A stretch of 64,000 nucleotides of DNA from Fidelibacterota bacterium (GCA_947475295.1 CANJLF010000002.1:120690-184689), one strand, 5' to 3'. Shown: positions 9,825 to 46,255, counted from the stretch's first letter. The notes: generated from the sequence alone by a model not told the origin. Made by a program: numbers and translations.

Positions 9825-10115
9825 TTAAGGCTTCTTGGGTTCCATATGGCCCGGGATCATCTCGCCCTTATCGAGATGCGGCGGTACATAAGTGCCGTCG
9901 GGGGGGCCGCCGCGAAGGAGCGCCGTCGCCGACAACACCGCGAAGGCCAGCACCGCGCCCGAGAACAGAAGCAAGGGCCATGGGCCTTGCTCCAGCTTCG
10001 GCGCTTCACCGCCGTGACGCGCGACATAGCCCGTGCGGTACCACACCCAAGCGGCGTAGACCGCCGCGGGCAGCAGAAACGGCACGATGTAGGTGAACAC
10101 GATCCGCGACATCAC
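9825..10115 (-). CDS. small membrane protein (two predicted TM helices), conserved-hypothetical type
   Basis: Hydrophobic segments IVFTYIVPFLLPAAVYAAWVW and WPLLLFSGAVLAFAVLSATALL. Tightly packed between cca and the NUDIX gene. Confidence 0.5.
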   Translation of the reverse strand: MMSRIVFTYIVPFLLPAAVYAAWVWYRTGYVARHGGEAPKLEQGPWPLLLFSGAVLAFAVLSATALLRGGPPDGTYVPPHLDKGEMIPGHMEPKKP

Positions 10116-10123
10116 CCGTCCCC

Positions 10124-27900: not shown

Positions 27901-27914
27901 CGGCGGCTCTGACG

Positions 27915-28817
27915 ATGGCAGCATCGGCACAGGCCGCGATCACCGTAACGGCGCCAGCCAAGATCAACCTGACCCTGCACGTCTGCGGACAGCGGGCCGA
28001 TAACTACCACCTGCTGGACTCATTGGTGGTCTTCGCGGGCGTCGGCGACCGCATCACGGTCTCACCAGCAGACCATCTACAGCTGAAGATGACCGGACCT
28101 TTCGGCGGAGCGCTGGCCAATGAGCCCGACAATCTTGTCTTGCGCGCCGCAAGGCTTTTGGCCGCGACCCACAAGGTCACACGCGGCGCGAACATCACTC
28201 TTGAGAAGAACCTGCCGGTGGCATCGGGCATCGGCGGCGGCTCGGCCGACGCGGCGGCGACCCTGGTCGCCTGCGGGCGTTTGTGGAATACGGGTCCGCT
28301 GACGCTCAAAGACACAGACATCGCCGCGGCTCTGGGCGCGGACGTACCGGTATGCTTGCGCGGCGTTCCCGCCTTTATGAGCGGTATCGGCGAAATCATC
28401 GAAGCTGCGCCGACGCTGCCCGAGGCCTGGCTGGTCCTCGTTAATCCAGGCGAGCCCTTGGCGACCAAAGCGGTCTTCGCCGCTCTTGCCGGACGGTTCT
28501 CGCCCGCCATGGCTCGGGACGGCTTCAAGACTCTGGCCGACGCGAAAAGCCTCGCCGATGCCCTCAAGCTTTACACGAACGACCTGGCGCTTCCCGCCCT
28601 GGAAATTCTGCCTTCCATCGCGGCGGTGCTTACGGCGCTGGAGGAAACCCCCGGCTGTCTCCTGGCGCGGCTGTCGGGCAGCGGACCCACCTGTTTCGGC
28701 CTGTTCGGGAACGGCGCGGCGGCGGCCACGGCGGCGGCCCAGCTCGCGGCGGCTCATCCCCGCTGGTGGGCCGTGGCGGCGCCCGTGTTAAAGCCGGGCA
28801 AACCCTCGGAATTGTGA
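27915..28817 (+). CDS. ispE: 4-diphosphocytidyl-2-C-methyl-D-erythritol kinase
   Basis: APAKINLTLHV...LEKNLPVASGIGGGSADAAA GHMP-kinase motif. Confidence 0.9.
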   Translation: MAASAQAAITVTAPAKINLTLHVCGQRADNYHLLDSLVVFAGVGDRITVSPADHLQLKMTGPFGGALANEPDNLVLRAARLLAATHKVTRGANITLEKNLPVASGIGGGSADAAATLVACGRLWNTGPLTLKDTDIAAALGADVPVCLRGVPAFMSGIGEIIEAAPTLPEAWLVLVNPGEPLATKAVFAALAGRFSPAMARDGFKTLADAKSLADALKLYTNDLALPALEILPSIAAVLTALEETPGCLLARLSGSGPTCFGLFGNGAAAATAAAQLAAAHPRWWAVAAPVLKPGKPSEL

Positions 28818-31021: not shown

Positions 31022-31095
31022 TGGGGCGTCGCCAAGCGGTAAGGCAGCGGTTTTTGGTACCGCCATCCTAGGTTCGATTCCTAGCGCCCCAGCCA
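31022..31095 (+). tRNA. tRNA-Gln (anticodon UUG), CCA encoded
   Basis: Hand-folded cloverleaf: acceptor TGGGGCG/CGCCCCA, D stem GCC/GGC, anticodon stem GCGGT/ACCGC with loop TTTTGGT, T arm CTAGG-TTCGATT-CCTAG, then discriminator G plus CCA. Confidence 0.9.
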
Positions 31096-31155
31096 TCCAA
31101 TCCAATTCCCCGGACCACCCTCCCCGGGTTGGTTCTCCGTCAGTGAACCGCGCGT

Positions 31156-32037
31156 TTAATTCACCCGGCTGCGTTCGCCCTTGGCCAAGGCAATCTCGAT
31201 GACATTCAGGCCATCTTTGTTGAGACGCGACGGGTACATGTCTTTCAACCGGTCCTCATGGACGGGGATAACGCGGCGCGTATCGTCGCCGACCAGACTC
31301 AACATGCGGTTGGTCGTCGCGATAAGATTGTAGTGGCTACCGGTGGCGAGACCGACTGGGATCGGCGCTCCGTCTCCACCGTCGAACCCGCGCAGGTTTT
31401 CCTGGCAGTAGACCAGATCGCCGGCAAAGACATAGCTGTCGGCGCTGTCGGCCTTTTTGCCGTCGTTGCGAACGCGGACGAACATGCAGCCCCATGTATG
31501 GCTGTCGAGTGCCGCATGAACATCAATCCCCGGCAGGACATCCTCGCGGTCGCCGTCGACGATCACGAGACGGCCACCCTTGGCCGAATTCACCATGCGA
31601 ATGATGTCGGCCGGGTCGATGGCGACTGTCAGAGCGTTGTATTTGCTCCCCAGCGATAGCGCCCAAATCCACTTGGAGAGTTCCTGTTCTTGGATGTAGT
31701 AGCGCGCATTGGGGAATTCGCCGGTGCCGCCGATGTGATCGAAGTGCGCATGGGTAATAAAAATATCGGTCACCTGTTCGGGCGTCACGTCGCACTGGGC
31801 CAGGATCTCGCGTGGTGAATGCCAGTTCTGGACGCCGTACGTGGAGGCGAAGGTGGCACCCATGTCCTTATTGTTGAATCCGACATCCACCATGGCCACG
31901 CGCCCCTTGCCCTTAATCAGGACATAACCATAGGGAAGCTTGCGATGACCTTGGTTGTGCGCGCCGTAGATGATGCCGCTCACAGGAAAATTAGGGACGT
32001 AGGCATATTCCAGAACCCAAATTGAATATTCGCTCAT
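31156..32037 (-). CDS. MBL-fold metallo-hydrolase (N-acyl-homoserine-lactonase-like family)
   Basis: ITHAHFDHIGG HxHxDH zinc motif. GGTGAGGAA Shine-Dalgarno upstream. Confidence 0.75.
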   Translation of the reverse strand: MSEYSIWVLEYAYVPNFPVSGIIYGAHNQGHRKLPYGYVLIKGKGRVAMVDVGFNNKDMGATFASTYGVQNWHSPREILAQCDVTPEQVTDIFITHAHFDHIGGTGEFPNARYYIQEQELSKWIWALSLGSKYNALTVAIDPADIIRMVNSAKGGRLVIVDGDREDVLPGIDVHAALDSHTWGCMFVRVRNDGKKADSADSYVFAGDLVYCQENLRGFDGGDGAPIPVGLATGSHYNLIATTNRMLSLVGDDTRRVIPVHEDRLKDMYPSRLNKDGLNVIEIALAKGERSRVN

Positions 32038-32059
32038 GATATTTCCTCACCCTTAAAAC

Positions 32060-32422
32060 TTAGTGCGGTGTGGCCCCATCGCGCGGCGCACAGCATGCTT
32101 GACTGACATCGACGATTTCGAAACCCGGCAACGCATGGCCCGCCCACCTGAGTTGTTGGTAGGCGGATTGCAGCGGCACAAGCACTGAGTCGACGCGCGC
32201 GCGCGCCATGGCGCTGAGATGTAAATCCTCTTGCGCCCGCCTGAGCGCCACGCCCATCGCCGCGAGCGCGGCGATCAGATGCTGATGGTGGTGTGTGGCG
32301 CGCGCGGTGGGGCGCACGCTGCGAATCCCGTCGCTGACGCGTTCGAAGGTCTGACGTGCCGTTGCAAACAGCGGATGGTCTTGCGTGACGGTCTTAGAGC
32401 CAGCGGCCGCGAGAACCAGCAT
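32060..32422 (-). CDS. hypothetical helical protein
   Basis: GC-rich third positions. Ends 22 nt upstream of the MBL gene start. No Shine-Dalgarno seen and no family recognised. Confidence 0.3.
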   Translation of the reverse strand: MLVLAAAGSKTVTQDHPLFATARQTFERVSDGIRSVRPTARATHHHQHLIAALAAMGVALRRAQEDLHLSAMARARVDSVLVPLQSAYQQLRWAGHALPGFEIVDVSQACCAPRDGATPH

Positions 32423-32467
32423 GCCGGCTATTTGCCCAACGGCGTGCTTTAAATCCTCGAAATGAGG

Positions 32468-32617
32468 CTAAGTCTTGAGCACATAGTCGATGGTGCTATC
32501 ATCGAGCGTATTGCCAAGCTTACTGGCAGTGGTGTTGTGGTCTTCGCAACCACAACCGCTTTCCGCCGCAGCGGCATCGAGGTGCAGTTCAGGCCGTAGG
32601 CCGTGATCGATCCGCAT
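32468..32617 (-). CDS. candidate 49-aa small ORF (MRIDHGLRPELHLDAAAAESGCGCEDHNTTASKLGNTLDDSTIDYVLKT)
   Basis: ATG preceded by GGGGGAGGGGACG (a GGAGG Shine-Dalgarno at ideal spacing). It is the only plausibly coding part of the listed 32468-32881 ORF. Confidence 0.3.
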   Translation of the reverse strand: MRIDHGLRPELHLDAAAAESGCGCEDHNTTASKLGNTLDDSTIDYVLKT

Positions 32618-32892
32618 CGTCCCCTCCCCCGCCGGCCCAGGCCATGGTTGCCGCACAGCCTGGCCGATTTCAAGCAAATTGTGACACCTGAAACTTATCG
32701 GGAAAGTATACAATTTAGCGCCCTTCTTGAATCGCCGTGAATCAGGCGCTTTCGCATTGAATGATCTCAAATTTGAGGTCGAGGCTGACCGATTTGGCAA
32801 CACCCGGAGAGACGATCGGGCAACATTCGGCTGACTTGACCAAGCAGCCGCCGCGATGCAACCTGCATAGGTGGCTCGCAAGGAGTGGTATA

Positions 32893-33693
32893 ATGCCCGA
32901 TCAGGCGGTCTATGAGATCTATGCGATCAAATACGCGCATTTGTTCCGCCACTCCCCTGCGAACTTCATTGGCGGCGACGAACACGACGTGCCGATGCCG
33001 CTCGATTATTTCGTCTGGGCGATCAAGGGCCGCGATCGGACGTTGATCCTTGATACCGGATTCTCCAAGGAAATGGGCGACAAACGCAAACGCCAACACC
33101 TGCGCTCGCCAGCGGTCGGACTGAAAGCGATCGGCGTCGAGCCCGATCAGGTCCGCGACGTCATTATTTCGCACATGCACTACGATCATTGCGGCAACTA
33201 CGACCTGTTTCCCAACGCCACCTTCCATCTGCAGGATAAGGAAATGGCCTATTGCACCGGCCGTTGCATGTGTCACGCCAATTTGCGCCACGCATACGAC
33301 GCCGACGATGTGACGGCCATGGTGCGGCGCATCTATGAAGGCCGCGCTATGTTCCATGACGGCACAAGCGAAATCGCACCCGGGATCACGGTGCATCATG
33401 TCGGCGGCCATACCAGCGGTCTGCAGATCGCGCGGGTGATGACACGACGCGGATGGATGGTGCTGGCCTCCGATGCCTCGCACTTCTACGCCAACTTCCA
33501 GCAGCAGCGCCCGTTCCCTGTCGTCGCGAACGTACCCGAGATGCTGGAAGGGTATCGCACCATGAACGCGCTGGCGTCGTCGCCGGATGCGATTATCCCC
33601 GGCCACGATCCCCTGGTGATGAAACAATATCCGGCCGCGGCTCCCGGCCTGGAAGATATCGTCGTCCGGTTGGACGCAGACCCGAAGGCGTAG
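32893..33693 (+). CDS. MBL-fold metallo-hydrolase (N-acyl-homoserine-lactonase-like family)
   Basis: ISHMHYDHCGN HxHxDH motif. Start moved to ATG 32893 (MPDQAVYEIYAIKY), which follows an AGGAG Shine-Dalgarno at 32881. Confidence 0.75.
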   Translation: MPDQAVYEIYAIKYAHLFRHSPANFIGGDEHDVPMPLDYFVWAIKGRDRTLILDTGFSKEMGDKRKRQHLRSPAVGLKAIGVEPDQVRDVIISHMHYDHCGNYDLFPNATFHLQDKEMAYCTGRCMCHANLRHAYDADDVTAMVRRIYEGRAMFHDGTSEIAPGITVHHVGGHTSGLQIARVMTRRGWMVLASDASHFYANFQQQRPFPVVANVPEMLEGYRTMNALASSPDAIIPGHDPLVMKQYPAAAPGLEDIVVRLDADPKA

Positions 33694-33750
33694 CGGCAAA
33701 TCGGTTTTTACTTTCGGACCTCGATAGCATGACCACGGAGTCACACAGCG

Positions 33751-35148
33751 ATGTCCCCTAGTAGCTATCATATGCGTAACTCTCACCCTTCCCTTGCTCG
33801 TCGGATGGCGCGGCGCATAACGGCGGTGCGTTACGAAGACTTCTCGCCCGACACCATCGTCCGACTCAAGCTGTGCCTCCTCGACCTCTTCGCCTGCGCC
33901 TTCGAAGCGCGCGATTTGCCGTGGAGCCGCCGCGCTGCTGCACTTGCCGCCACTGAAAGCGGGCCGGCAACAATTCTTGCCACCGGCCAATCAGCATCCA
34001 TGGCAGCCGCGGCCCTGGCCAACGGAGTCGCCGGGCATGGTCTCGTGCGTGAGGATATGCATGCGGGCAGCGTCAGCCATCTCGGCGTCGTGGTCTTGCC
34101 CGCGCTACTGGCGCTCGCCCAACGCAGGCCCGTTCATGGCCGCGACTTTATCGCCGCCGCGGTCACCGGTTACGAGGCGGGCGCACGTCTCGGCCGCGTC
34201 CTCATCACGCCGGACTTCGCGCGCTTCTTCCGGCCGACCGGATTCACCGGTCCGATCGCGGCGGCCAGTGCGGGCGCGCGGCTGCTTGGCTTCGATGAAG
34301 CGGCGTGCACCAGCGCCATTGCGCTTGCGGCCAATACAGCATCGGGATTGAACCAGTGGCCGCACGAAGGCAGTGAAGACATGTTTTTCCACCCCGGCTT
34401 TGCCGCACGCAGCGGCGTGACCGCGGCGCTGCTCGCCGAACTCGGGGCTGAAGGATCCGAGGGCGCGCTGGATGGGCCGGCCGGTCTCTTGACCGCCTAT
34501 CTCGCGGGCAAGCCTGTCCCCGACATTAAATTGTTCGACGGCCCTCCAGAACTGCTCGCGGTTTATAATAAGCCGGTGCCGGCGTGCAATTTCGCGCAGA
34601 CCCCATGCCAGGCAGCGCTTGCCGCCGTGCGCGGTCATGCCATCGCAACGGCCGACATCCGCTGGGTTCGCATCGCGGCTTCTTTTGCCGCGGTCAAATA
34701 TCCCGGCTGCGACTATGAAGGGCCGTATAGAACGCGCCTTCAGGCGAAAATGAGTATCCAGTTCAGCGTCGCGGCGGCGCTGCGCCGTGGCGTGATTGCC
34801 GAAGCAAACTATGAGCATCTCGACGATCCTGAAATCATGCGGCTGGTGCGGCTAGTGCATCTCGAAGCCGACAACGGATTCACCGCGGACTTCCCGGCGC
34901 GACAGGGATCGCGGATCGAAATCGAATTGGCCGATGGCCGGAAGCTCAGTGAAACGCTCGCCGATGTCGTGCCGGCGACCGAGACCGAGATCCGCGCCAG
35001 GTTCCGCGCCAGCGCTATCGAAACCTTGGGCGCCCCACGCGCGAGCGCAATCGAGCAGATGATCGACCGCCTGGAAACGGCGCCCTCGGCCGGCGATCTT
35101 CCGCGTCTTGCAGCGACTGCGCACAACGCCGCGACGTCAGCGGCCTAG
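33751..35148 (+). CDS. MmgE/PrpD family protein (2-methylcitrate-dehydratase-like)
   Basis: Length of ~465 aa, and N-terminal ...YEDFSPDTIVRLKLCLLDLFACAF... typical of the family. Confidence 0.8.
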   Translation: MSPSSYHMRNSHPSLARRMARRITAVRYEDFSPDTIVRLKLCLLDLFACAFEARDLPWSRRAAALAATESGPATILATGQSASMAAAALANGVAGHGLVREDMHAGSVSHLGVVVLPALLALAQRRPVHGRDFIAAAVTGYEAGARLGRVLITPDFARFFRPTGFTGPIAAASAGARLLGFDEAACTSAIALAANTASGLNQWPHEGSEDMFFHPGFAARSGVTAALLAELGAEGSEGALDGPAGLLTAYLAGKPVPDIKLFDGPPELLAVYNKPVPACNFAQTPCQAALAAVRGHAIATADIRWVRIAASFAAVKYPGCDYEGPYRTRLQAKMSIQFSVAAALRRGVIAEANYEHLDDPEIMRLVRLVHLEADNGFTADFPARQGSRIEIELADGRKLSETLADVVPATETEIRARFRASAIETLGAPRASAIEQMIDRLETAPSAGDLPRLAATAHNAATSAA

Positions 35149-35159
35149 AAACGCCTGCC

Positions 35160-35885
35160 TCAGTACATGACCATGCCGCCGTCGGCGACCAATGTGGCGC
35201 CATGAACGAAGGATGCCTTGGGCGACAACAACCACGCGATCCCTTCGGCGATCTCCTCCGCTGTGCCGAGACGGTTGAAGGAAGACAACCCCTCCATGCG
35301 TTGCCTGATCGCCGGATCGGCCATGGGCCCGGCGGCGAACGGGGTATCGATGACTCCCGGCGCTATGGTGTTCACGGCGATGCCTTGGGGCCCCAGCGTG
35401 CGGGCGGCGTTCTTGGTCAAGGCCAGGATCGCACCCTTACTGGTGGCATAGGAGATCGTTCCCATGAGGCCGCCGCCGCGCAAGCCCGCGACGCTCGAGA
35501 CGGTGCAGATACGCGCGCCGGAAGCCATCAACGGCACGGCTTCACGAATGCATACAAAGGTGCCGACCACGTTCACGTCGAGGATACGGCGGAAAGCATC
35601 GGCCGTCGTATCCATCAAGGTTGCTGTCTCAAAGATCCCGGCGCATGTAGCCAAAGCATCGAGGCCGCCCAATTTCATTTTGACTTCACGAAAAGCGGCG
35701 ACGACAGAGCTTTCATCCGCAACATCGACTGCGATCACCGGATGGCCGCCGGCGACTTTGCGCGCGGCATCCGCATTGCGGTCGAGGCATGCAACCGTCC
35801 AACCCTCGCGGATCAGAAGCGCCGCCGTCGCAGCACCGATGCCGCTGCCGGCCCCCGTGACCGCTACCCGCTTGCCCACGCCCAT
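35160..35885 (-). CDS. SDR-family oxidoreductase
   Basis: VAVTGAGSGIGAA Rossmann motif, YATSKGA catalytic YxxxK. Start placed at MGVGKR. Confidence 0.85.
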   Translation of the reverse strand: MGVGKRVAVTGAGSGIGAATAALLIREGWTVACLDRNADAARKVAGGHPVIAVDVADESSVVAAFREVKMKLGGLDALATCAGIFETATLMDTTADAFRRILDVNVVGTFVCIREAVPLMASGARICTVSSVAGLRGGGLMGTISYATSKGAILALTKNAARTLGPQGIAVNTIAPGVIDTPFAAGPMADPAIRQRMEGLSSFNRLGTAEEIAEGIAWLLSPKASFVHGATLVADGGMVMY

Positions 35886-36019
35886 CGTTTCGACCCTCTT
35901 CAATCTGATCCACCGCAATCGGCCGATCCTAACGCGCCGCCCCGCGTCTGGACTATACTCTCCCGCAGCATATCAGCTATAGAGTGCCAATCATCAACCG
36001 GGTGCCGGCGGAGAGAGTC

Positions 36020-36913
36020 ATGGCGAACAAAAAATTAGGTTTCATTGGCGTCGGACGGATGGGCGGCCGGATGGCTTCGCGGCTCATCGACGCCGGGCAT
36101 GAGCTCGTTGTCTGCGACCCCAGCGCCGAAGCGGTTGCCGCACTTGTGGCACGCGGTGCGCGCGGTGCGAAGAACGCCAAAGAGGTTGCTTCCGAGGCCG
36201 AGGTCGTCTTCGCCAGCCTGCCCACGCCGCCGGTCGTGGAAGCCACGGCGCTCGGCGCCGACGGCGTAATGCACGGCTCGAAGATCAAGGTTTTCATCGA
36301 CACCTCCACCACCGGACCGCGCGTCGCTGCGCGCGTCGCCGCCGGTCTTGCCGCCAAAAACATCGTTGCTGTCGACGCGCCGGTGAGCGGTGGGTTGGCC
36401 GGCGCGCAGAACGGCACATTGGCCATCATGGTATCGTGTCCCAAGGATACCTATACGGCGCTGGAACCCATTCTCAAGAATCTCGGCAAGCTGTTCTTCA
36501 TCGGTGAGAAGCCCGGTTCGGGCCAGGTGGTAAAGCTCGCCAACAATTTGATGGCTGCTTGTGCGCTGGCGATCACCTCCGAAGCGATGGTGATGGGCGC
36601 CAAAGCCGGCATCGACGCCCAGACAATGATCGATGTCTTCAATGTCAGCAGCGGACGCAACACGGCCACGGTCGACAAGTTTCCCAAGGCGGTTCTGACG
36701 CGAACCTTCGATTTCGGCTTTGCCACCGGCCTTTCCTATAAGGATGTCAGCCTGTGCATCGACGAAGCGGAGGCCATGGGCGTGCCGACCATCGTCGGCA
36801 GCGCCGTGCGGCAATTCTTGGGAATCACCAAATCACTCTTCGGCGCCGAATCGGACTTCACCTCGATGTGCAAGACCGTCGAGCAATGGGCCAAAGTCGA
36901 GGTTCGCGGCTAG
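36020..36913 (+). CDS. NAD(P)-dependent oxidoreductase, 3-hydroxyisobutyrate-dehydrogenase family
   Basis: LGFIGVGRMGGRMA dinucleotide fold and ...DAPVSGG...GTLAIMV... pattern. Start at ATG 36020. Confidence 0.85.
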   Translation: MANKKLGFIGVGRMGGRMASRLIDAGHELVVCDPSAEAVAALVARGARGAKNAKEVASEAEVVFASLPTPPVVEATALGADGVMHGSKIKVFIDTSTTGPRVAARVAAGLAAKNIVAVDAPVSGGLAGAQNGTLAIMVSCPKDTYTALEPILKNLGKLFFIGEKPGSGQVVKLANNLMAACALAITSEAMVMGAKAGIDAQTMIDVFNVSSGRNTATVDKFPKAVLTRTFDFGFATGLSYKDVSLCIDEAEAMGVPTIVGSAVRQFLGITKSLFGAESDFTSMCKTVEQWAKVEVRG

Positions 36914-36948
36914 CTACCTGCAGCCACACAAAAATAAGGGGAAGCACC

Positions 36949-37335
36949 ATGAGCAAAGACGTATACGACCGCGGATTGGAAATCCGTAAATCAGTCATCG
37001 GCAAAGAGTTCGTCGATAAGGCTTTTGCCACCGCCGACGATTTCAACCGGCCGCTTCAGGACCTCATAACCGAATATTGCTGGGGCGCCGTGTGGGGCCG
37101 TCCGGGCATTTCGAAGCAAACGCGCAGCATGCTCAATCTGGCAATGCTCAGCGCCCTCAATCGCCCCCAAGAATTAAAGACGCATGTGAAGGGCGCTTTG
37201 ACGAACGGCGTCACCAAGGACGAAATTCGCGAAGTGCTGATGCAGGTCGCGATCTATTGTGGCGTGCCTGCAGCCGTCGACTCATTCCGCATCGCTCGCG
37301 AAGCCTTCACCGAGATCGACGCGGCGCAAAAATAG
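36949..37335 (+). CDS. carboxymuconolactone decarboxylase family protein (PcaC-like)
   Basis: EYCWGAVWGRPGISKQTRSMLNLAMLSALNRPQELKTHV...EIREVLMQVAIYCGVPAA. Start at ATG 36949. Confidence 0.85.
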   Translation: MSKDVYDRGLEIRKSVIGKEFVDKAFATADDFNRPLQDLITEYCWGAVWGRPGISKQTRSMLNLAMLSALNRPQELKTHVKGALTNGVTKDEIREVLMQVAIYCGVPAAVDSFRIAREAFTEIDAAQK

Positions 37336-37351
37336 AGCGCGGCATCAGGTC

Positions 37352-38728
37352 TTAGAAATCCACGTCCCTCGTCTCTTCACCCATCGCCGCTCCGATCGTG
37401 GCGATGACCGCGCCGATAAAAAGCAGCACGGCCGGTGCCGCCTGTGGAGAGACGAGATTGCCGAGCCATCCCAGATAGACGGCGTAGAAAGACGGCAAAA
37501 CCACTGACAGACTAAAGCCGATACCAAAGCCCGTGGCCCGCACTTCCGTCGCGAACCGCTCATTGATGTAGGTGATGATTACACCCCACGGAGCGGTAAC
37601 CAGCACAGCAAGCATGCAGACCAGCAGAATGATCTGCGGCAAGGGAGCTCCTGCGCTATTGGCGAGCGTGTAGAGAAGGCCGACGCCAGCCGTCGCGATC
37701 AGTACGCCCAGGATGATGAAGGCGCGGCGACGGCCGATTTTCTGCCCGAGAATGCCGGCGCCGATATAGCTGAAGAACAGGATGCAATAGGTGATGATCA
37801 GCGTCGTCGTCAGTTCGAATTTCGACAGCTTCAGCGTCTGGGCCAGCAGCGCCGAGGGCATATAAATTGTGATGATGTTCTGCGTGGTCCAAAAGCCGGT
37901 CATCATGAGCAGGACCTGGGCCAGTTTGCGAACGTTCGATCCCCTGAAAAGCCGCGCGGCGGCAGGCTTCTTGATGCCTTCCTTGGTTTTGACTTGCCAG
38001 ACCTCTGATTCCGAGACCTTCTTCCAGTAGTAGTACGCCAGCCACCCGGCGAGAGCCGCCCCGATGATGAACGGAATGCGCCAGCCCCACACGGCGTAAG
38101 GCGAATCCATCCCATCGAGGGGAACGAGCGCAAACATGACCAGCGCTACCAGGCTGATCGCGACATAGGCGGCGGGGAAGGCCGCGATGATCAGACCGCC
38201 CACGAAGCCACGTTGGTCCTTGCGTGAATATTCCATGGCTAGAGGATGACTCGCCGTGTAGCCGCCGCCGAGACAAACGCCGTCCAGAAAACGGAGCAGC
38301 AAGAGCAGCAGATAAGATGAAATGCCGATCGTCTGGTAGCTCGGCAGGAGCGCAATCAGCAGGGTGAATATGCCAAAGCCCACCACTGAAATGATCGAGG
38401 ATTTGCGACGGCCGATGCGGTCGGCCATCCGGCCGAAGATCAGGGCGCCGACAGGACGACCGAGCAGCGTCGTAATAAAAATAAATGAGTTTAGAATCGC
38501 CGCCAGGCCGGGCTCGATCTCGGCGGGTTGGAAATAGCCGAGCACGGGGGTGAGGACCACCACGGGCAGATAGATATCGAACATGTCGACGAACTCGGTG
38601 AAAAACGCGCCTTTGATCGCAGTGCGCCTCTTTACCTCGATACCGTCATGCGAAGTGACTGTACCCACAGCCTGTTCATGTGCGGCCACGGCATTTTCCC
38701 CTAAGAGCGCCCGTGGTCCAACTTCCAC
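37352..38728 (-). CDS. MFS transporter (metabolite:H+ symporter-like)
   Basis: ~12 hydrophobic segments. FTEFVDMFDIYL and GRMADRIGRRK motifs of the MHS type. Exact start uncertain. Confidence 0.8.
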   Translation of the reverse strand: MEVGPRALLGENAVAAHEQAVGTVTSHDGIEVKRRTAIKGAFFTEFVDMFDIYLPVVVLTPVLGYFQPAEIEPGLAAILNSFIFITTLLGRPVGALIFGRMADRIGRRKSSIISVVGFGIFTLLIALLPSYQTIGISSYLLLLLLRFLDGVCLGGGYTASHPLAMEYSRKDQRGFVGGLIIAAFPAAYVAISLVALVMFALVPLDGMDSPYAVWGWRIPFIIGAALAGWLAYYYWKKVSESEVWQVKTKEGIKKPAAARLFRGSNVRKLAQVLLMMTGFWTTQNIITIYMPSALLAQTLKLSKFELTTTLIITYCILFFSYIGAGILGQKIGRRRAFIILGVLIATAGVGLLYTLANSAGAPLPQIILLVCMLAVLVTAPWGVIITYINERFATEVRATGFGIGFSLSVVLPSFYAVYLGWLGNLVSPQAAPAVLLFIGAVIATIGAAMGEETRDVDF

Positions 38729-38763
38729 AGGCGCCGATTTATTTTTGCGTTATCGCAATTTGG

Positions 38764-39432
38764 TTAGTTCTGGGCTTGCTCCCGAGGGGATTCCAGCATT
38801 TTCTGCTGGCTCTCGACCGCTTTCTGCTTCTGAGCCACCAAATCCTTCTCGCAGGTCTTGAGATCGGGGCAATAATTTTCAGGCATGCGGCCCGACACTG
38901 GGTTCTTATAGGAGAACCACATCGGCTTGATGTCCGGCCAGGAGATCATATCGCCGGGTGCGGAGCCATGATGGCGCAGCGGCATCGAGGTGCGCGGAAT
39001 GTCGGCGGGGAAATTGCGCAAAGGCTCGATGGCCTGCTTCACCGGCGCGCGCGCCGGCGCTTTGGGTTCATCGCGCGACCATCCCGATTTCCAGCTCGCG
39101 GAGGTGAGATAGGGTTGGTCCGGAGCCCCCACGTCCAGCTTGAAGACGCCGTCTTCCATCTTGATGACGTTGTTGGGGTACATGCCGTCGGAAATGCCCG
39201 CGCCATATTCAGAGCGGGTGTCGAAATGGAGCAGATAGTGACGGGCAGTGGCGGATTTGCCGTCTTCCGCCACGTCGATCACCGGCTGCATCATCCAGTG
39301 ACTGGCCGACGCCAAATTCGGCTTGGTAGCTGCCGCCGCAAACGCCGGCGAACTCACCATGGTCACGGTGGCCGCACTTGCCATAAGCCCAAGCGCGTCA
39401 CGGCGGTTTATGCCTTCAATCTTGTTGCTCAC
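38764..39432 (-). CDS. Tat-signal protein of unknown function
   Basis: GTG start after a GGGGAGG Shine-Dalgarno. N-terminus VSNKIEGINRRDALGLMASAATVTMVSSPAFAAA (RR motif, h-region, AxA). Upstream of and co-oriented with the MFS gene. Confidence 0.55.
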   Translation of the reverse strand: MSNKIEGINRRDALGLMASAATVTMVSSPAFAAAATKPNLASASHWMMQPVIDVAEDGKSATARHYLLHFDTRSEYGAGISDGMYPNNVIKMEDGVFKLDVGAPDQPYLTSASWKSGWSRDEPKAPARAPVKQAIEPLRNFPADIPRTSMPLRHHGSAPGDMISWPDIKPMWFSYKNPVSGRMPENYCPDLKTCEKDLVAQKQKAVESQQKMLESPREQAQN

Positions 39433-39699
39433 AATCAGCCTCCCCTTGTTGAAATTTTTGGTGACGTGCTCTGAACGGACATAAACGGTGTTCCCGCACT
39501 GGGTGGTTGGCAATAGTGAGCCCGACACAGTGATAACCATGTGTATTGTATGCAATCAGTCTCGTATTCTTCCGCGCTGCAGCTAAAGCGGTCAGCGCAC
39601 ATTTTCGTGCAGTTATGTTTTTGATGCGCCGCCTCGGATGCTAATATCTACTATCGCAATCCGGCATATCCCCAAGCCGGAGCACTCAGGGAGGAGACC

Positions 39700-40887
39700 A
39701 TGGATAAAGACACAAAACTGCCGCGGCGCCGACTTCTTCAGGCTGCGGCCATAGCCGGCGGTCTGCCGCTTCTTCAATCCGCATATTCATCCATGCCCGC
39801 AGCGGCGGCGGAGACCTCCGAGTTTACACCGTACCCCATTCGGAATGATCTCAAGCCCACAGGTACTGGCTCCGCAAAAACGACCATCGGCTCAGGCCCT
39901 GTGCGTATTGCGGTTCTCGACGACCCGATGCGGTTGGTTGCAAAACTTTCTGATTGGGCGCCTGTGACTGGCCGCGCCACGGTCGATATCTACCACGATC
40001 ATATTTACAACCAGGATGCCCTCGCCCGCCGGCTGGCGCCCTACGACATCATCGTCATGGAGCGCTACCGTACGCCCATCAGGGCGGAGGTGATCGCCAA
40101 ACTGCCCAAACTGAAATTTGTTGTCGCCACAGGTGCTGATTTCTCCGAATTCCTCGACCTGCCCCAATGTAAAAAGCAGAACATCCAGGTCTCCTCGGCC
40201 GGCGGCGGCGGCGTTCCCGGCGGCGGCGGTGTCGAAGAAGTTGCGTGGGCACTTACCATGGATCTCGCCCGCCAAGTGACCTGGCACAACAACGATATGC
40301 ACGCAGGCAAGTGGCAGATCAGGCCCAGCAACGGACTGGGGGGAAAGACCGTCGGCTGTGTCGGCTTGGGGAACCAAGGCCTCAAGATGGTCCAGTTCGC
40401 TAAAGCCTTCAGAATGAAGACCGTGGCCTGGAGCATGAACATGACGGACAAACAGGCCACAGACGGTGGCAGTACGCGCGTTGAGTTCAAAGACCTTTTG
40501 GCGCAAAGCGACTTCGTAATCATTAATTATCGGTACGGCGAGCGCTCGCACCACCTCTTTAAAGCCGAGCACTTCGCGCAGATGAAACCCACCGCCTATC
40601 TGGTCAACACTTCACGCGGACCGGTTGTGGACGAAACCGCCATGCTGGCGGCGCTGAAGTCGAAGCGCATCGCCGGCGCTGGCCTCGATGTGTTCGGCGT
40701 TGAGCCCCTGCCCACCAACCATCCGTTCGTCGGCATGGACAACGTGATCATGACGCCGCATATCGGCTACCCGACTGTCGAAAGCGTGCAGGTTATGTAT
40801 GCCCGTGCCGTGGAAAGCCTTGTCGCCTATCTGGACGGCAAGCCGATACGTCTGTTGGACCTGGACAAGAAGTATGGAGAAACCTGA
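39700..40887 (+). CDS. D-isomer-specific 2-hydroxyacid dehydrogenase family protein with N-terminal Tat-type signal
   Basis: GKTVGCVGLGNQGLKM NAD fold, NTSRGPVVDE and MTPHIGY catalytic region. N-terminus MDKDTKLPRRRLLQAAAIAGGLPLLQSAYSSMPAAAAE. Confidence 0.8.
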   Translation: MDKDTKLPRRRLLQAAAIAGGLPLLQSAYSSMPAAAAETSEFTPYPIRNDLKPTGTGSAKTTIGSGPVRIAVLDDPMRLVAKLSDWAPVTGRATVDIYHDHIYNQDALARRLAPYDIIVMERYRTPIRAEVIAKLPKLKFVVATGADFSEFLDLPQCKKQNIQVSSAGGGGVPGGGGVEEVAWALTMDLARQVTWHNNDMHAGKWQIRPSNGLGGKTVGCVGLGNQGLKMVQFAKAFRMKTVAWSMNMTDKQATDGGSTRVEFKDLLAQSDFVIINYRYGERSHHLFKAEHFAQMKPTAYLVNTSRGPVVDETAMLAALKSKRIAGAGLDVFGVEPLPTNHPFVGMDNVIMTPHIGYPTVESVQVMYARAVESLVAYLDGKPIRLLDLDKKYGET

Positions 40888-41296
40888 GCAACTCACGAGA
40901 GGAGAGATTCACGCGACAAGCGACTTCGTGTCGGTGCATTATCGCCTCGGCGAGCGCTCACGCCACCTGATCGGCGGCGAGCACTTCGCGAAGATGAAAC
41001 CCACCGCCTATTTGATCAACACCTCGCGCGGCGAGATTTTGCGCGAAAACGAGCTGATCGCGGCATTGGAGAAAAAGCAGCTCGCCGGCGCGGGCCTGGA
41101 CGTCTTCGCAGAAGAGCCCCTGGCCAAAGACCATCCGTTCCGCAAAATGGAAAACGTGGTCATTACGCCGCATATCGGCTACGTGACGACCGAATACCTG
41201 ACGAATGCGTATCGCCAGACCATGGAAGATATTGTCGCCTTCATGGACGGCAAGCCGATTCGGATACAGCCGTACCGCACCGTGAATATCGACTAA
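40874..41296 (+). pseudogene. C-terminal fragment of a paralogous 2-hydroxyacid dehydrogenase (lacks the NAD-binding half)
   Basis: SDFVSVHYRLGERSRHLIGGEHFAKMKPTAYLINTSRGEILRE...ITPHIGY aligns with residues ~265-395 of the upstream gene. No GxGxxG region. It begins in a different frame right at the upstream stop. Confidence 0.6.
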
Positions 41297-41323
41297 CAGA
41301 ACACAAGACTACGCCATGAAAAT

Positions 41324-41358
41324 GGGCCGGCCCCGCGAGGGACCGGCCCACTTTTTTT
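41324..41358. terminator. bidirectional rho-independent terminator
   Basis: GGGCCGGCCCC-GCGA-GGGACCGGCCC hairpin, with TTTTTTT after it on + and a TTTT equivalent on -. It sits between convergent genes. Confidence 0.65.
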
Positions 41359-41376
41359 GACGCTTATCGGCTTATC

Positions 41377-42417
41377 TTAAAGGCCGGTCGCCAGATAAGG
41401 CTTGAGCTGGGCAAAACGGAGTTCGATTTCGGCCTTTTCTACCGGCAACTGGGCAACTTCCACGACGGTGTAGTTTTTCCCGGCCGCGCCGGCGCCAGCT
41501 CTACGCGCCATCAAGCTCTTGAACACGCCGCGCTTGTGGAAGACATAGCGCTGCGTGCCGGGAATGAAGGTCTCGCAGTTCATCATCAGCAACATCTTGG
41601 AGAAGATCTCCGCGGCGAGGTCCTTCTTGCCGGCTCTGTAAGCCTTCAATATGGCCACGCTGAGGTCGGCGTAAGCCCCTTGCGCGGTGGCTTGTCCGTC
41701 AACGCCGAGGGCGAGGTCGTAAAGGTAGCTGGGACCGCCTCCCGTGCTGAGGACCATTCTTAAGCCCGGCTTGGCGGCGATATCGGCGCGGATATGCGCG
41801 GGGATCGGGTTGCCCTCTTCTTTAACATAACCGAAGTTTGGGAATTCCTTGGCCAGGCGCAGATTGGTCGCGAGGCTGGGAAACCCCTGCGGGTTATTCG
41901 TCATGATGATCGGCCGCTTGGTGATCTTGGCCACGGGCGCAAAATAGTTATAGGCCTCGTCATCGGTAAAGGGCTTGTTCGCAGGCGGTTGCACCGCGAT
42001 GCCATCCGGGTTCAGGCTTTCGGCTTTGGTGACATACTCCAGCATCGTGGCTTGGTCAGCACCCTGGCAGGACAGCACTGACGCCATCTTGAGCGGCCGG
42101 CAGGCATTCGCAATCGTTTCAAAGCCTTTCATGCGCTCTTCTTTGCTGAGCAAGGGCGCATCGCCGCCGCCCAGAGGCCACAGCGAGCCATTCGCGCCGC
42201 AGCTCTCGTAGAACTTCATCGTCTTGGCCAGATCTTCGTGGTCGATTTCGCCCGTCGCGGTATAGGGCGTCGTCGACACCGGCATGATGCCGCCGATGGG
42301 CTTGGTGGCTTGCGCCGCCCGCGCCGGCGCTCCCGTCATCAGGATGGCCCCGCCGGCTGCCATCAGTCCAAGCGCCTCGCGGCGCACCATGCCTTGAATT
42401 CTGTTACGATCCGTCAT
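41377..42417 (-). CDS. dihydrodipicolinate synthase / N-acetylneuraminate lyase family aldolase with N-terminal Tat-type signal
   Basis: GGIMPVSTTPYTATGEIDHEDL...LSKEER...GYVKEEG (Schiff-base Lys context). N-terminus MTDRNRIQGMVRREALGLMAAGGAILMTGAPARAA. Confidence 0.7.
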   Translation of the reverse strand: MTDRNRIQGMVRREALGLMAAGGAILMTGAPARAAQATKPIGGIMPVSTTPYTATGEIDHEDLAKTMKFYESCGANGSLWPLGGGDAPLLSKEERMKGFETIANACRPLKMASVLSCQGADQATMLEYVTKAESLNPDGIAVQPPANKPFTDDEAYNYFAPVAKITKRPIIMTNNPQGFPSLATNLRLAKEFPNFGYVKEEGNPIPAHIRADIAAKPGLRMVLSTGGGPSYLYDLALGVDGQATAQGAYADLSVAILKAYRAGKKDLAAEIFSKMLLMMNCETFIPGTQRYVFHKRGVFKSLMARRAGAGAAGKNYTVVEVAQLPVEKAEIELRFAQLKPYLATGL

Positions 42418-42833
42418 TTCAGCCCCCGCTATTTTTGATTGGAATGGCTATGCACGGTAAATGATCGCGGACGGTGTTCCCGCGCATAACGCTTGTCAAT
42501 AGCAGTACCGCAGGACTTGCTCCGAGCGGCTGGTATGCCCTAGGCAATCCCATCTATGCCAGCCTGCCCGAAAATTAAAAAAACCCATGGAAATTCAATA
42601 TTTTAGTTCCGCACGCGGCTCTGGCCTCGCGGTGGGAAAAAATTGAATCGGGGTCTTGAAGCTTCAAAAACCACACTTACGTCGTCCTTGGTTCTCCTTT
42701 CACGGGAGGCCGCTTCACGTCTTTGAAACTGAAACCGTCATTTGCTTACGGGAGGGATGACCGCGTCATGACGAACGTTGCTAATGGAGTTCCTGTTATG
42801 GGAACGCAAAAGAGAAGGGAATGGAGAGGAACG

Positions 42834-43322
42834 ATGCCAACATCGAGAAAAATCGCCGCGGTAATCGTCGCTCAACTGGCTTTGACGCCAGTAGCCCATG
42901 CGGCTTGCAACGACACACAACCCGACACGCGTTACGCGCTGAACGGCGCTGAAGTTTATGATTCGAAAACCAACCTCACATGGCAGCGTTGCAGCCTCGG
43001 GCAAACCTGGAGCGAGAATAAGTGCACCGGATCGGTTACAGGAATGACCTGGGATCAGGCGAACAAGGCAGCACAGTCGGCTAAATCAGGCTGGCGCCTG
43101 CCGACCCGGCAGGAATTACAGAGTGTACTGCAAAACACATGCGGCCTGTCGCCCGGCGACAAGCTGGTCTTCCCGGATTTGGATATCATGTACTCCACGT
43201 ATTGGAGCGCGACTACGAGCGAACCGGCGCTTGCCTGGCTCGTAGGTTTTAACAACGCTTCCACCTTCAACGGATTCCGGACGGCGCCTAACGCCGTGAG
43301 ATTGGTGCGTACGGGAAAATAG
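42834..43322 (+). CDS. DUF1566 (Lcl C-terminal-like) secreted protein
   Basis: Signal peptide MPTSRKIAAVIVAQLALTPVAHA. TNLTWQRC...MTWDQA...GWRLPTRQEL...YWSATT motifs. Start at ATG 42834 after a GGAGAGGA Shine-Dalgarno. AT-richer DNA. Confidence 0.75.
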   Translation: MPTSRKIAAVIVAQLALTPVAHAACNDTQPDTRYALNGAEVYDSKTNLTWQRCSLGQTWSENKCTGSVTGMTWDQANKAAQSAKSGWRLPTRQELQSVLQNTCGLSPGDKLVFPDLDIMYSTYWSATTSEPALAWLVGFNNASTFNGFRTAPNAVRLVRTGK

Positions 43323-43342
43323 TCGGATCGAATTCGCCTTAG

Positions 43343-43374
43343 AAAGCCCCACCGGTTTTGGTGGGGCTTTTTTT
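43343..43374 (+). terminator. rho-independent terminator
   Basis: AAAGCCCCACC-GGTTT-TGGTGGGGCTTT hairpin followed by a T-run. Confidence 0.8.
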
Positions 43375-43611
43375 ACGGCATATGGCAGGGTCGCGTCCGG
43401 CCTTTTCAGCACATGATGCATGCATGAAATTGTATTGCGCTGCGGGATTAAAGGCCCTAGCATTTCTGGCCTATAGTTAACTTTATGATGCGTTGCGATA
43501 GATTCTTTCAACGCCCACAAATGAGGAACAATGCTTGCGATGAAGTGATTTGGGGAGGCAACGGGAGCGCCAGGCACGCAGTGGATCGAGTCCTATATAA
43601 GGAGACTTGCC

Positions 43612-44034
43612 ATGACCGATACAGATGCCACGCTGTTTTCGCATGTCAAACCAAAGGACACCCCATATCGCTCCGATGGCTTACGCGACTTCTTCCTTTA
43701 TCGCGATCTGGGCATTGCCAAGGCTACCCACGGCAAAGTCATCGCCCACCTCGTCAAAGCCAATCATCCGCCGACCAACGGCACCGGCTGGCACCGGCAT
43801 GTGGCCGATTTCCAGATCGTCATCATGATGAAGGGCTGGGCTAAATTCATGTACGGCGACAACGTGACCTTGGTTGAAGCCGGTGACTGCGTGCATCAGA
43901 GACCGGGGTTGGTGCATTATCTTTTCGACTATTCGCCGGACATGGAATATCTGGAGATCGTCTCGCCGGCCGATTTTGGAACGGTGGACGCGGAGGCGCC
44001 TTGCGCGGTGCCGCCGGTCACCCCGTGGACTTAA
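43612..44034 (+). CDS. cupin domain protein
   Basis: GWHRH...V.MMKGWAKF...G.....AGD...Q.PG..H cupin motifs. AAGGAGA Shine-Dalgarno. Confidence 0.7.
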   Translation: MTDTDATLFSHVKPKDTPYRSDGLRDFFLYRDLGIAKATHGKVIAHLVKANHPPTNGTGWHRHVADFQIVIMMKGWAKFMYGDNVTLVEAGDCVHQRPGLVHYLFDYSPDMEYLEIVSPADFGTVDAEAPCAVPPVTPWT

Positions 44035-44051
44035 ACGCAAGGCACTAGAGC

Positions 44052-46223
44052 GTGATGAATTGGATTCCCTCCGGCGGCCTTAAAGTCGCCAAGCCGCTTT
44101 ACGAATTCATCACCGACGAGGTTCTGCCCGGAACCGGCATTGCCGCGGCGGCATTCTGGACCGGGCTGGACGAAATTCTGCACGAACTTGCGCCGCGCAA
44201 CCGCGCCCTGCTGACTGAGCGCGATATACTGCAAGCCAAGATCGACGCTTGGCTGAAGGCCCGGCGCGGCCGCGATTTCGATGCGCCTACATATAAGGCG
44301 TTTCTCAAAGATATCGGCTATCTGAAAACCGAAGGGCCCGACTTTACGGTCGACACCGCCCATGTTGACCCGGAGATCAGCCGTGTCGCCGGCCCGCAGT
44401 TGGTGGTTCCCGTCGCCAACGCCCGCTATGCCCTCAATGCCGCCAACGCCCGCTGGGGAAGTCTTTACGACGCGCTTTACGGCACCGACGCTATTGCGGG
44501 CAAGCCGTCGTCGCCGGGTTACGATCCTGCACGCGGCCGCGAGGTCGTTGTCTTCGCCAAGCAATTCTTGGATCAAGCCGCGCCCTTGGCAACGGGCTCC
44601 CACGCCGATGCGACGGGATACCTGATCGAGGGCGTTGCGCTTAAAGTAAAGCTCGGCACCGGCACCGTCGTCGGTCTGGCACAGCCGGAGAAATTCATCG
44701 CTTCGCGCGGTGAAGCGTCCACCCCGTCGGTTATTCTTCTGGCCAACCACGGCCTTCACATCGAAATTCACGTCGACCGTCAGCATCGCATTGGCTCAGG
44801 TGACACCGCCGGCGTCAGCGATGTCGTGCTCGAATCCGCCGTGACCACGATCCAGGATTTTGAAGACTCCATCGCCGCCGTCGACGCGGAAGACAAAGTA
44901 GCTGCCTATCGCCATTGGCTGGGGCTGATGAAGGGCACTTTGTCCGCCAGCTTCCAGAAGGGGAAGGCTACCGTCGAACGTCATCTCAACCCAGATCGCA
45001 CATATACCACTGCGGATGGCGGCACACTCACGCTGCCCGGGCGAAGCCTTATGTTGGTCCGCAATGTCGGACATCTCATGACCCTCGATGCCGTACGGCT
45101 TAAAGACGGCACCGCCGCACCCGAAGGCATTTTGGACGCCATGATTACGGTGCTGATCGCGCTTCACGACATCAAGCGCAGCGGACCTTTGCGCAACAGC
45201 CGCGAGGGATCGGTCTATATCGTCAAGCCCAAGATGCATGGGCCGGACGAAGTCGCCTTCACCGAAACAATCTTCACGCGCGTTGAAGACGTCCTGGGGC
45301 TACCGCGCAATACCGTCAAGATCGGCATTATGGACGAAGAGCGGCGCACCACGGTCAACTTGAAAGAATGCATCCGCGCTGCCCAGCACCGCATTGTCTT
45401 TATAAACACTGGGTTCTTGGACCGCACCGGCGACGAGATGCATACCTCTATGGAAGCGGGCCCCATGATCCGCAAGAACGATATGCGCTCCGCCGCTTGG
45501 ATTAAGGCCTATGAAGACTGGAACGTCGATATCGGATTGGCTTGCGGGCTTCCCGGCCACGCGCAGATCGGCAAAGGCATGTGGGCCATGCCCGACCGCA
45601 TGGGCGATATGCTGGCCACCAAAATGGGTCATCCGAAAGCGGGCGCTAGCGCGGCGTGGGTGCCCTCGCCCACGGCGGCAACGCTTCATGCGATGCACTA
45701 CCATCAAGTCGATGTCGCGGAGCGCCAGCAGGAATTGAAGACACGCGCCCGCGCCAGCCTGGACGACATTCTCACGATACCGCTCGCCGACCGCCCCAAC
45801 TGGTCGGCCGAGGTGATTCAGCAGGAGCTCGACAACAATGCCCAGGGCGTTCTGGGCTATGTCGTGCGTTGGATCGACCACGGCGTTGGGTGCTCCAAAG
45901 TGCCCGACATTAATGGTGTCGGGTTGATGGAAGATCGCGCGACCTTGAGAATTTCAAGCCAGCATATGGCGAATTGGCTTTATCACGGCGTTTGCAGCGA
46001 AGATCAGGTCCGCGAGACCATGAAACGCATGGCGGCCGTGGTCGATGGACAAAACGCCGGCGATGCCGATTACCGGCCCATGGCGCCCCACTTTGAAAGC
46101 AATATTGCCTTTCAAGCGGCCTGCGACCTGGTTTTCAAAGGCCGCGCACAACCCAATGGCTATACGGAACCGCTCCTGCACCAGCGGCGCCTGGAGCTGA
46201 AGGCCCGCGAAAAGGCTCATTAA
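44052..46223 (+). CDS. glcB: malate synthase G
   Basis: 723 aa. [22 protein letters not shown]-terminus and central ...[14 protein letters not shown]...IMDEERRTT... pattern. Confidence 0.95.
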
Positions 46224-46255
46224 GCCCGCGCGGTCTTATGCTATGACGGCACTCC

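Follow-up and report, generated by a model that had tools for sequence, protein, structure and literature searches.

Three neighbouring genes of a Fidelibacterota bacterium encode proteins that start with a twin-arginine (RR) leader, which raises the question whether they form a pathway outside the cytoplasm. They occupy positions 38,764 to 42,417 of a 64,000-nucleotide stretch of DNA (GCA_947475295.1, CANJLF010000002.1:120690-184689), which was analysed as a whole and is called the window below. Two of the genes, g2 and g3, encode enzyme types that are normally cytoplasmic, namely a D-2-hydroxyacid dehydrogenase and a TIM barrel of the DHDPS/NAL superfamily, and the original prediction saw in the three genes a possible periplasmic module for hydroxy acids or keto-deoxy acids. 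The answer we prefer, with a probability of roughly 70%, is a different one: the block would be a recombination patchwork in a tRNA-Gln island, with g2 and g3 exported by the twin-arginine translocation (Tat) machinery and g1 left as a fusion remnant, and not an evolved three-gene pathway.

Re-reading the window bore out the coordinates and sequences of the three genes as first described, and an MFS transporter gene indeed lies directly downstream of g1, on the same strand and at a distance of 35 nucleotides (nt). The genes are arranged as follows, with lengths in amino acids (aa):

38764-39432, minus strand: g1, 222 aa, GTG start at 39432
39700-40887, plus strand: g2, D-isomer 2-hydroxyacid dehydrogenase with leader and linker, 395 aa, ATG at 39700; Pfam and NCBIfam matches, PDB entry 1wwk at 8e-46
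40889-41296, plus strand: g2b, orphan C-terminal part (about 135 codons) of a second Tat-clade 2-hydroxyacid dehydrogenase; partial Pfam match
41377-42417, minus strand: g3, DHDPS/NAL-superfamily TIM barrel with RR leader (leader at about 42316-42417), 346 aa, ATG at 42417
37352-38728, minus strand: MFS transporter of the metabolite:H+ symporter type; Pfam MFS_1 at 3.5e-30, TIGR00883 at 6.4e-59, which is below the cut-off of that model

A fused gene and an orphan fragment in a tRNA-linked island

The gene g1 had been taken for that of an unknown protein of about 220 aa. Judged by its alignments, it is instead a chimera in which the 5' region of a DHDPS-like gene is fused to the tail of a SnoaL gene, that is, a truncated fusion product. 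The boundaries of its parts can be read directly from the comparisons, as can two copies of a motif upstream of g1 and g3:

39319-39432, minus strand: g1 head, GTG start and 38-codon RR leader from a DHDPS-like gene (tblastn, DNA alignment and a three-way alignment including the head of the g3 orthologue on metagenome contig L002)
38764-39318, minus strand: g1 tail, last ~180 codons of a gene for a secreted protein with three SnoaL_4 domains (BLASTP, alignment, partial SnoaL_4 match)
39485-39516, minus strand: upstream motif CTATTGCCAA-N9-GCGGGAACACCGT, copy 1, 52 nt before the g1 start and within the divergent g1/g2 intergenic region
42471-42502, minus strand: upstream motif, copy 2, 53 nt before the g3 start

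The source of the tail is a family of uncharacterised secreted proteins of about 700 aa, which carry a Sec-type signal and three SnoaL_4 domains. Residues 31-204 of g1 are 61% identical to residues 527-699 of a full-length member of 702 aa, P0272 (BLASTP, E 3e-77), so the likeness covers the last 174 residues of such proteins. As g1 matches P0272 only at 527-699, it begins in the middle of the third SnoaL domain, and its Pfam SnoaL_4 match is likewise partial, spanning profile positions 52-110 of 126, or half a domain. In g1, the Sec signal of the full-length proteins is missing, as are the linkers and two and a half of the three complete SnoaL_4 domains, and the N-terminus has been taken from another gene. 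The junction falls between ATKP and NLASASHW (about 39318/39319), near codon 38. The AlphaFold 2 (AF2) model of g1 reached a mean confidence (pLDDT) of 43, with a shallow alignment, and without the first half of its SnoaL domain the g1 product is probably not a working enzyme. The triple-SnoaL family was found in none of 60 relatives, and the organism's own genome holds only the piece in g1.

The head of g1, whose leader reads MSNKIEGINRRDALGLMASAATVTMVSSPAFAAAATKP, still has the GTG start and the strong Shine-Dalgarno sequence that had been described for it (AAGGGGAGG before the GTG). It resembles the leader of g3 with 55.6% identity over 36 aa (tblastn, E 2e-6), and a local DNA alignment of 107 nt between the two genes scored 62 against 19.4 ± 2.6 for shuffled sequences. 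The 5' homology continues upstream through the Shine-Dalgarno sequence to the 32-nt motif CTATTGMCAA-N9-GCGGGAACACCGT, for which a pattern search of the whole window returned two copies with none expected, equally spaced from the starts of g1 and g3. The motif also stands 5' of the g3 orthologue on L002 (9941-9972), and it is the head of this orthologue to which the g1 head is closer, sharing the motif, AACAAGGGGAGGC and SN-IEG with it. The leaders of g1 and g3 are hence paralogous copies and not independent occurrences, and the clustering of leader genes at this locus is therefore partly due to local duplication and fusion.

Full-length triple-SnoaL genes elsewhere overlap an upstream Amidohydro_2 gene by 4 nt, a conserved pair seen on contigs L027 (5721-8782) and L007 (5783-8891), and the Amidohydro_2 product of both carries an RR leader (MIGRRTFVKSASMMAIAS...). 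On L007, a nanopore contig, the triple-SnoaL gene is broken by frameshifts.

A second scar lies between g2 and g3. The fragment g2b matches 2-Hacid_dh_C at profile positions 83-178 only and lacks the N-terminal part. Its best match is P0008, another member of the Tat clade of dehydrogenases to which g2 belongs, at 69%, versus 57% for g2. As g2b is closer to other Tat-clade dehydrogenases than to g2, a different Tat-clade gene must once have stood here. The remnant has kept an intrinsic terminator:

41323-41358, plus strand: hairpin and U-run kept by the g2b remnant, convergent with the end of g3; RNA fold -25.2 kcal/mol, z = -4.3

The borders of g2 itself are equally sharp. Its closest orthologue, on contig L001, shares 92% protein identity, and the DNA identity of 89% sets in 66 nt before the ATG and ends precisely with the stop codon. 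On L001, a gene for a 246-aa Rossmann protein (F420_oxidored/NAD_binding_2) with an RR leader follows 23 nt further on, and the same pair is present in the congener G023. The orthologue of the L001 Rossmann gene in the organism's own genome stands alone on contig C23, with 86% DNA identity.

All of these genes fall into a variable island that begins at a tRNA gene:

31022-31095, plus strand: tRNA-Gln (UUG), left border of the variable island (ARAGORN)
31096-46255, no strand: 15.2-kb strain-specific island with g1, g2, g2b, g3, the MFS gene, glcB and other genes (tblastx synteny of L028, L029 and L030 versus the window)

Three congeners (G015, G003 and G023) have the same tRNA-Gln and the same gene upstream of it, and between the tRNA and the double ABC ATPase gene that closes the island in the window, they hold other DNA of about 0.4, 2 and 7.3 kb, respectively, in place of the 15.2 kb found here. 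The window is collinear with these congeners at 28.9-31.1 kb and again from 46.26 kb onward, with no match between. The island ends on the right with glcB, a gene that the congeners carry on other contigs. The island thus adjoins a tRNA gene, and at the corresponding site its close relatives lack it and have variable content instead, as expected of a tRNA-linked island. By these comparisons, the block in this strain-specific island bears no fewer than three scars of rearrangement.

The co-occurrence of the three genes points the same way. Among the 60 relatives sampled, g3 was found in none, and a Tat-clade g2 was found in three of 26 congeners, each time in a different context (DoxX upstream, Rossmann upstream, other). 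The neighbours of the closest g3 orthologue are unrelated to those seen here. We further surveyed 80 loci of the g3 family in named genomes with 10-kb flanks. Any kind of 2-hydroxyacid dehydrogenase was near three of them, at 30-34% identity, and none of the 80 had a Tat-clade dehydrogenase, the Rossmann partner or a SnoaL protein nearby. Neighbour clustering gave no family recurring at more than six of the 80 loci, a count made with a crude open reading frame (ORF) caller that mis-called frames in high-GC loci. The adjacency of g1, g2 and g3 was not found in any other genome examined. With g1 truncated, the adjacency unique among these genomes and at least three scars in a strain-specific island, the three-gene periplasmic module first proposed is not borne out.

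Twin-arginine leaders of g2 and g3

The description of the three N-termini held up well, as each has an RR pair, a moderately hydrophobic stretch and an AxA-like site, and each lies behind a good Shine-Dalgarno sequence. The leader of g2 reads MDKDTKLPRRRLLQAAAIAGGLPLLQSAYSSMPAAAAE, with GGGAGGAG before its ATG, and that of g3 reads MTDRNRIQGMVRREALGLMAAGGAILMTGAPARAA. The arginines stand in the n-region at residues 10-11 in g1, 9-11 in g2 and 12-13 in g3, followed by uncharged stretches of 24, 26 and 18 residues with mean Kyte-Doolittle values of 1.35, 1.03 and 1.48, respectively. The leaders end on the small-x-small sequences AAA, AAAA and ARA, and there is an Arg in the c-region of g3.

Conservation of these leaders was the main check, and orthologues of both enzymes keep them. 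Across 89 homologues of g3 with 36-83% identity, R12 and R13 never vary, just like the catalytic K199 discussed below, while the remainder of the leader drifts. An RR pair occurs within the first 45 residues of 110 of 116 g3 homologues, the remaining six being truncated calls, and distant family members from Acidobacteriota, Verrucomicrobiota, Planctomycetota and Pseudohongiella (Gammaproteobacteria) have textbook [ST]RRx[FL]L leaders. The Tat clade of g2 is rare and comprises 14 clusters (48-92% identity, 359-397 aa, 96-99% query coverage), of which 13 keep the leader, all with RR. The exception, P0012, is an aberrant product with a sulfatase domain (PF00884) at the N-terminus in place of the leader. 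The next relatives (at most 47% identity, 315-335 aa) have no leader and start right at the catalytic core.

39700-39813, plus strand: RR leader of g2, residues 1-38; motif LPRRxLLQAAAxAGGLP kept in P0001-P0011, P0013 and P0014

Because RR is conserved in orthologues, the true starts lie upstream of it and the leaders are selected features. The comparisons within each family indicate that the leaders are ancestral in the g2 and g3 lineages. The genome also encodes TatC (PF00902, 245.7 bits, contig C14). Tat export of g2 and g3 is likely on these grounds, and it is very likely that they represent exported versions of normally cytoplasmic enzyme types, as had been predicted. We assume recognition by Tat because of this conservation and not because of a trained predictor.

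Two further ideas on the leaders were tried and dropped. An in-house rule combining RR, a hydrophobic region (h-region) and AxA flagged 126 of 2248 ORFs genome-wide, many membrane proteins among them, and was too loose to be used for a chance estimate. The g2 clade was also considered as lipoproteins, since a Cys follows the h-region in five homologues. Position -3 from it is Glu, Gln or Gly, however, and the remaining homologues with a leader have Tyr (as does g2), Ala, Glu or Arg in place of the Cys.

Enzyme families and their described relatives

The dehydrogenase g2 matches PF02826 (2-Hacid_dh_C) at 5.9e-54 and PF00389 at 3.4e-9, has GLGNQG at residues 222-227 and retains R306, E335 and H354 in an alignment to 1wwk and the family, which makes it a D-isomer 2-hydroxyacid dehydrogenase. 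The catalytic core starts at about residue 68, leaving an N-terminal extension of about 65 aa, in line with the intact GxGxxG fold and the 60-70-aa extension noted originally. With the cytoplasmic D-2-hydroxyacid dehydrogenase/PGDH-like subfamily (PDB 1wwk, 4s1v and 3gg9; 315-335 aa), g2 shares both Pfam domains, GxGxxG, the Arg-Glu-His triad and 43-47% identity over the whole catalytic core. Unlike these enzymes, it has a 38-aa RR leader and a linker of about 30 aa, and its clade shows changes near the substrate loop, namely ERYRTP and a Gly-rich insertion of 3-4 residues (GGGGVPGGGG). Ser245 of g2 (AWS) stands where the NAD-specific 1wwk has the Asp of YDP, and this Ser is common to the whole subfamily, cytoplasmic members included. 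The Asp at the end of beta-B, which binds the adenosine ribose, defines an NAD-specific subgroup and not the superfamily, and g2 lacks it. Because Ser replaces the Asp of NAD-specific enzymes, the sequence suggests NADP or dual specificity for g2.

Relatives of the g2 partner and of g2 itself appear in other arrangements as well. Contig C23 carries two paralogous RR-leader Rossmann proteins of about 245 aa (F420_oxidored/NAD_binding_2) at 27502-28239 and 9745-10470, and the product of C23:27502-28239 has 87% aa identity to that of the Rossmann gene following the g2 orthologue on L001. On L003 (7546-9092), the Tat-clade dehydrogenase gene of a congener overlaps an upstream gene for a DoxX-family membrane protein by 4 nt.

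The periplasm has no free NAD(P) pool, which poses a cofactor problem for a dehydrogenase working there. The precedent is glucose-fructose oxidoreductase (Gfo) of Zymomonas mobilis, which according to statements in PMC8121099 and PMC13673990, both citing Halbig 1999, is exported by Tat and periplasmic and holds its NADP in a non-dissociable form. Gfo and g2 are alike in that both are dinucleotide-dependent dehydrogenases with a twin-arginine leader and belong to types that are otherwise cytoplasmic. Gfo takes up its cofactor in the cytoplasm and brings it along on export, and catalysis is redox-neutral between two substrates, as stated in the same sources (PMC8121099, PMC13673990). The folds differ, g2 being a D-isomer 2-hydroxyacid dehydrogenase and not a member of Gfo/Idh/MocA, and Gfo has no counterpart to the second RR-leader Rossmann protein with which g2 is paired in relatives. 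A tight hold on the cofactor would be assigned to g2 by analogy only. By the same analogy, g2 may follow the way of Gfo, the only described route for such a periplasmic enzyme, with the cofactor loaded before Tat export.

For g3, the predicted DHDPS/NAL-family aldolase held at the level of the superfamily. The AF2 model (pLDDT 91.6) is a (beta/alpha)8 barrel with a C-terminal helical domain, and Foldseek placed it about equally close to YagE, L-2-keto-3-deoxyarabonate (L-KDA) dehydratase, NanA and DapA (TM 0.80-0.87, E 1e-16 to 1e-14, 17-23% identity). Together with the YagE/YjhH 2-keto-3-deoxy-sugar-acid aldolases, L-KDA dehydratase, NanA and DapA, it has a TIM barrel with the Schiff-base Lys on the same strand (YVKEE). 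This residue, K199, aligns with that of YagE (GIKDT) and is invariant in the family. Membership of the DapA, NanA or 2-keto-3-deoxygluconate (KDG) aldolase families proper did not hold. The Tyr of the canonical YN(V/I)P motif is replaced by Thr173 in g3 and by Gln in 113 of 116 family members, the carboxylate-binding GxxGE motif reads WPLGGGD in g3 and WPQxxS[DE] in relatives, and three further positions that hardly vary in the family are changed in g3 and its two closest relatives. The Pfam DHDPS match is weak (5e-14). Because the Tyr and GxxGE motifs are missing and g3 falls far short of the cut-offs of all NCBIfam equivalogs, we place it, from its sequence, in the DHDPS/NAL superfamily and no lower. 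From YagE/YjhH, L-KDA dehydratase, NanA and DapA, the family is thus set apart by low identity, the exchange of Tyr for Gln or Thr, the altered GxxGE motif and an invariant RR leader. No characterised member of it was found in the searchable open-access literature.

The g3 family is widespread, with 538 loci in the species genomes across many phyla and 22 clusters (E <= 1e-30) among 1.84 billion representatives. Its clade is distributed over Acidobacteriota, the Planctomycetota-Verrucomicrobiota-Lentisphaerota group and Alpha- and Gammaproteobacteria, which are soil and water phyla. At no fewer than five loci in three lineages, members stand beside RR-leader enzymes resembling ManD or gluconate/galactonate dehydratase, with genes for an exported aldose dehydrogenase, a mutarotase and a lactonase nearby. 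Some members thus adjoin sugar-acid dehydratases in the way KDG-type aldolases do. The keto-deoxy-acid idea of the original prediction finds some support here, for the DHDPS-like family elsewhere and not as a three-gene module in the window; periplasmic action on 2-keto-3-deoxy sugar acids would fit part of the family only.

RR-leader enolase-superfamily genes (ManD-like or gluconate/galactonate-dehydratase-like) adjoining RR-leader DHDPS-like genes were recorded on L012 (398-1720), L013 (4284-5606), L057 (11112-12383), L070 (5943-7214) and L092 (8573-9955). On L012 and L013, genes for a Sec-signal aldose epimerase, a glucose/sorbosone dehydrogenase of the pyrroloquinoline quinone (PQQ) type and a phosphodiesterase lie alongside. 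A Rhizomicrobium-type subclade (L008, 7001-12950; L010, 7001-11864; also L031-L036) has the DHDPS-like gene at the head of a conserved row, often behind a TonB-dependent receptor and followed by an RR-leader SMP-30/gluconolactonase-like protein, a Sec-signal FmdA/AmdA-like amidase and a TPR protein. In the window itself, the gene just upstream of g3 on the opposite strand (42723-43322) encodes a protein of 199 aa whose N-terminus is signal-like and which contains an Lcl_C domain (9.5e-21).

Weighing the readings of the locus

In the reading we prefer, tRNA-Gln would be a hot spot at which the stretch was assembled by recombination inside the 15.2-kb island. A second DHDPS-like gene would have contributed its promoter motif, Shine-Dalgarno sequence, start codon and leader up to about codon 38, and a gene for a Sec-secreted triple-SnoaL protein of about 700 aa its last ~180 codons. 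The captured 5' region may now drive transcription of the downstream MFS gene; on the minus strand between g1 and the MFS gene, no terminator-like site was found. The proteins g2 and g3 would be exported folded via Tat to the periplasm. There, g2, paired in close relatives with the 246-aa RR-leader Rossmann protein, may carry its own nicotinamide cofactor as Gfo does and then work by a ping-pong mechanism between two substrates or with a periplasmic redox partner, while g3, with its Schiff-base Lys and without the canonical Tyr, may have a 2-oxo acid as its substrate, for example a 2-keto-3-deoxy sugar acid.

Several observations weigh against this reading. The g1 leader is still hydrophobic and AxA-ended despite about 30% DNA divergence, which could mean continuing selection, and the low-confidence model of g1 was built on only 13 aligned sequences. 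The upstream motif common to g1 and g3 sits in the divergent g1/g2 intergenic region, so the three transcription units could be co-regulated, and this would favour a functional link between them. On the side of export, the Tat-signal profiles PF10518 and TIGR01409 stay below their cut-offs on all three leaders, the best score being that of TIGR01409 on g1 with 10.3 bits versus a cut-off of 16.7, and PF10518 matches 3 of 89 g3-family members (E <= 0.05). Both profiles are short and insensitive, so these misses lower the certainty without excluding Tat targeting.

Of the other readings, a working periplasmic module of the three leader genes with the MFS transporter, which would take up the product made from a hydroxy acid or keto-deoxy acid, survives best and is still improbable. 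The genes are tightly adjacent, one motif precedes both g1-MFS and g3 and lies in the divergent region common to g2, and the sugar-acid dehydratases beside g3-family genes elsewhere would suit periplasmic keto-deoxy-acid chemistry. It is nevertheless difficult to reconcile an evolved module with an arrangement seen in no other genome examined, with a truncated fusion as its first gene, with an orphan fragment in the middle of the block and with a g2 parted from the Rossmann partner that it has on L001, at 92% protein identity, and in congener G023.

Slightly less probable still is that g1 has become a new small exported protein, in which a half-SnoaL sheet and a conserved C-terminal tail work with the MFS transporter. 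Its frame is intact and it retains the strong Shine-Dalgarno sequence and a signal-like leader; moreover, its C-terminal part (WPDIKPMWFSYKNPVSGR...CPDLKTCE) is the most conserved of the family and the sole region of the model with a pLDDT above 60. Yet the protein begins in mid-domain, the overall model confidence is 43 and no other member of about 220 aa was found, all other homologues being pieces of longer genes.

The least probable reading, in which the RR stretches are no export signals and g2 and g3 are cytoplasmic or anchored in the inner membrane by an extension serving as anchor, assembly tag or hitch-hiker contact, can point to the sub-threshold Tat profiles, to Ala or Leu instead of Phe at position +2 after RR in g1 and g3 and to the established lack of a free periplasmic NAD(P) pool, but it leaves unexplained why RR is invariant while the remaining leader drifts, why more distant family members have textbook [ST]RRxFL leaders, why h-region length, moderate hydrophobicity, the AxA-like site and the c-region Arg fit Tat signals and why the neighbours of family members are overwhelmingly signal-bearing proteins, with Gfo offering a known solution to the cofactor problem.

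Coming back to the patchwork reading, a wider proposal can be made for the two exported families, tentatively and at well below even odds. The g3 family may represent undescribed, phylum-spanning periplasmic Schiff-base lyases with Gln for Tyr. In a non-phosphorylative sugar-acid route outside the cytoplasm, these would provide the missing C-C cleavage or dehydration, and the remaining reactions would fall to PQQ or other exported sugar dehydrogenases, RR-leader lactonases and the RR-leader ManD/DgoD-like dehydratases beside some g3-family members. In the same proposal, the g2 clade and the RR-leader Rossmann protein would be a periplasmic NAD(P)-loaded pair whose members recycle each other's bound cofactor. 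Neither an exported DHDPS-type enzyme nor an exported D-2-hydroxyacid dehydrogenase turned up in our searches of the open-access literature.

For the reading of genomes, the window holds a caution, as neighbouring leader genes in a tRNA-linked island can be recombination debris and not a pathway. Should g2 and g3 indeed be periplasmic, exported clades would exist in two classic cytoplasmic folds, the D-2-hydroxyacid dehydrogenases and the DHDPS/NAL lyases, and annotation pipelines now label such clades like their cytoplasmic cousins. The g2 clade would then be the second fold family, after Gfo/Idh/MocA, to take a nicotinamide cofactor through Tat, and the g3 clade would extend the emerging picture of a sugar-acid catabolism that proceeds partly outside the cytoplasm.

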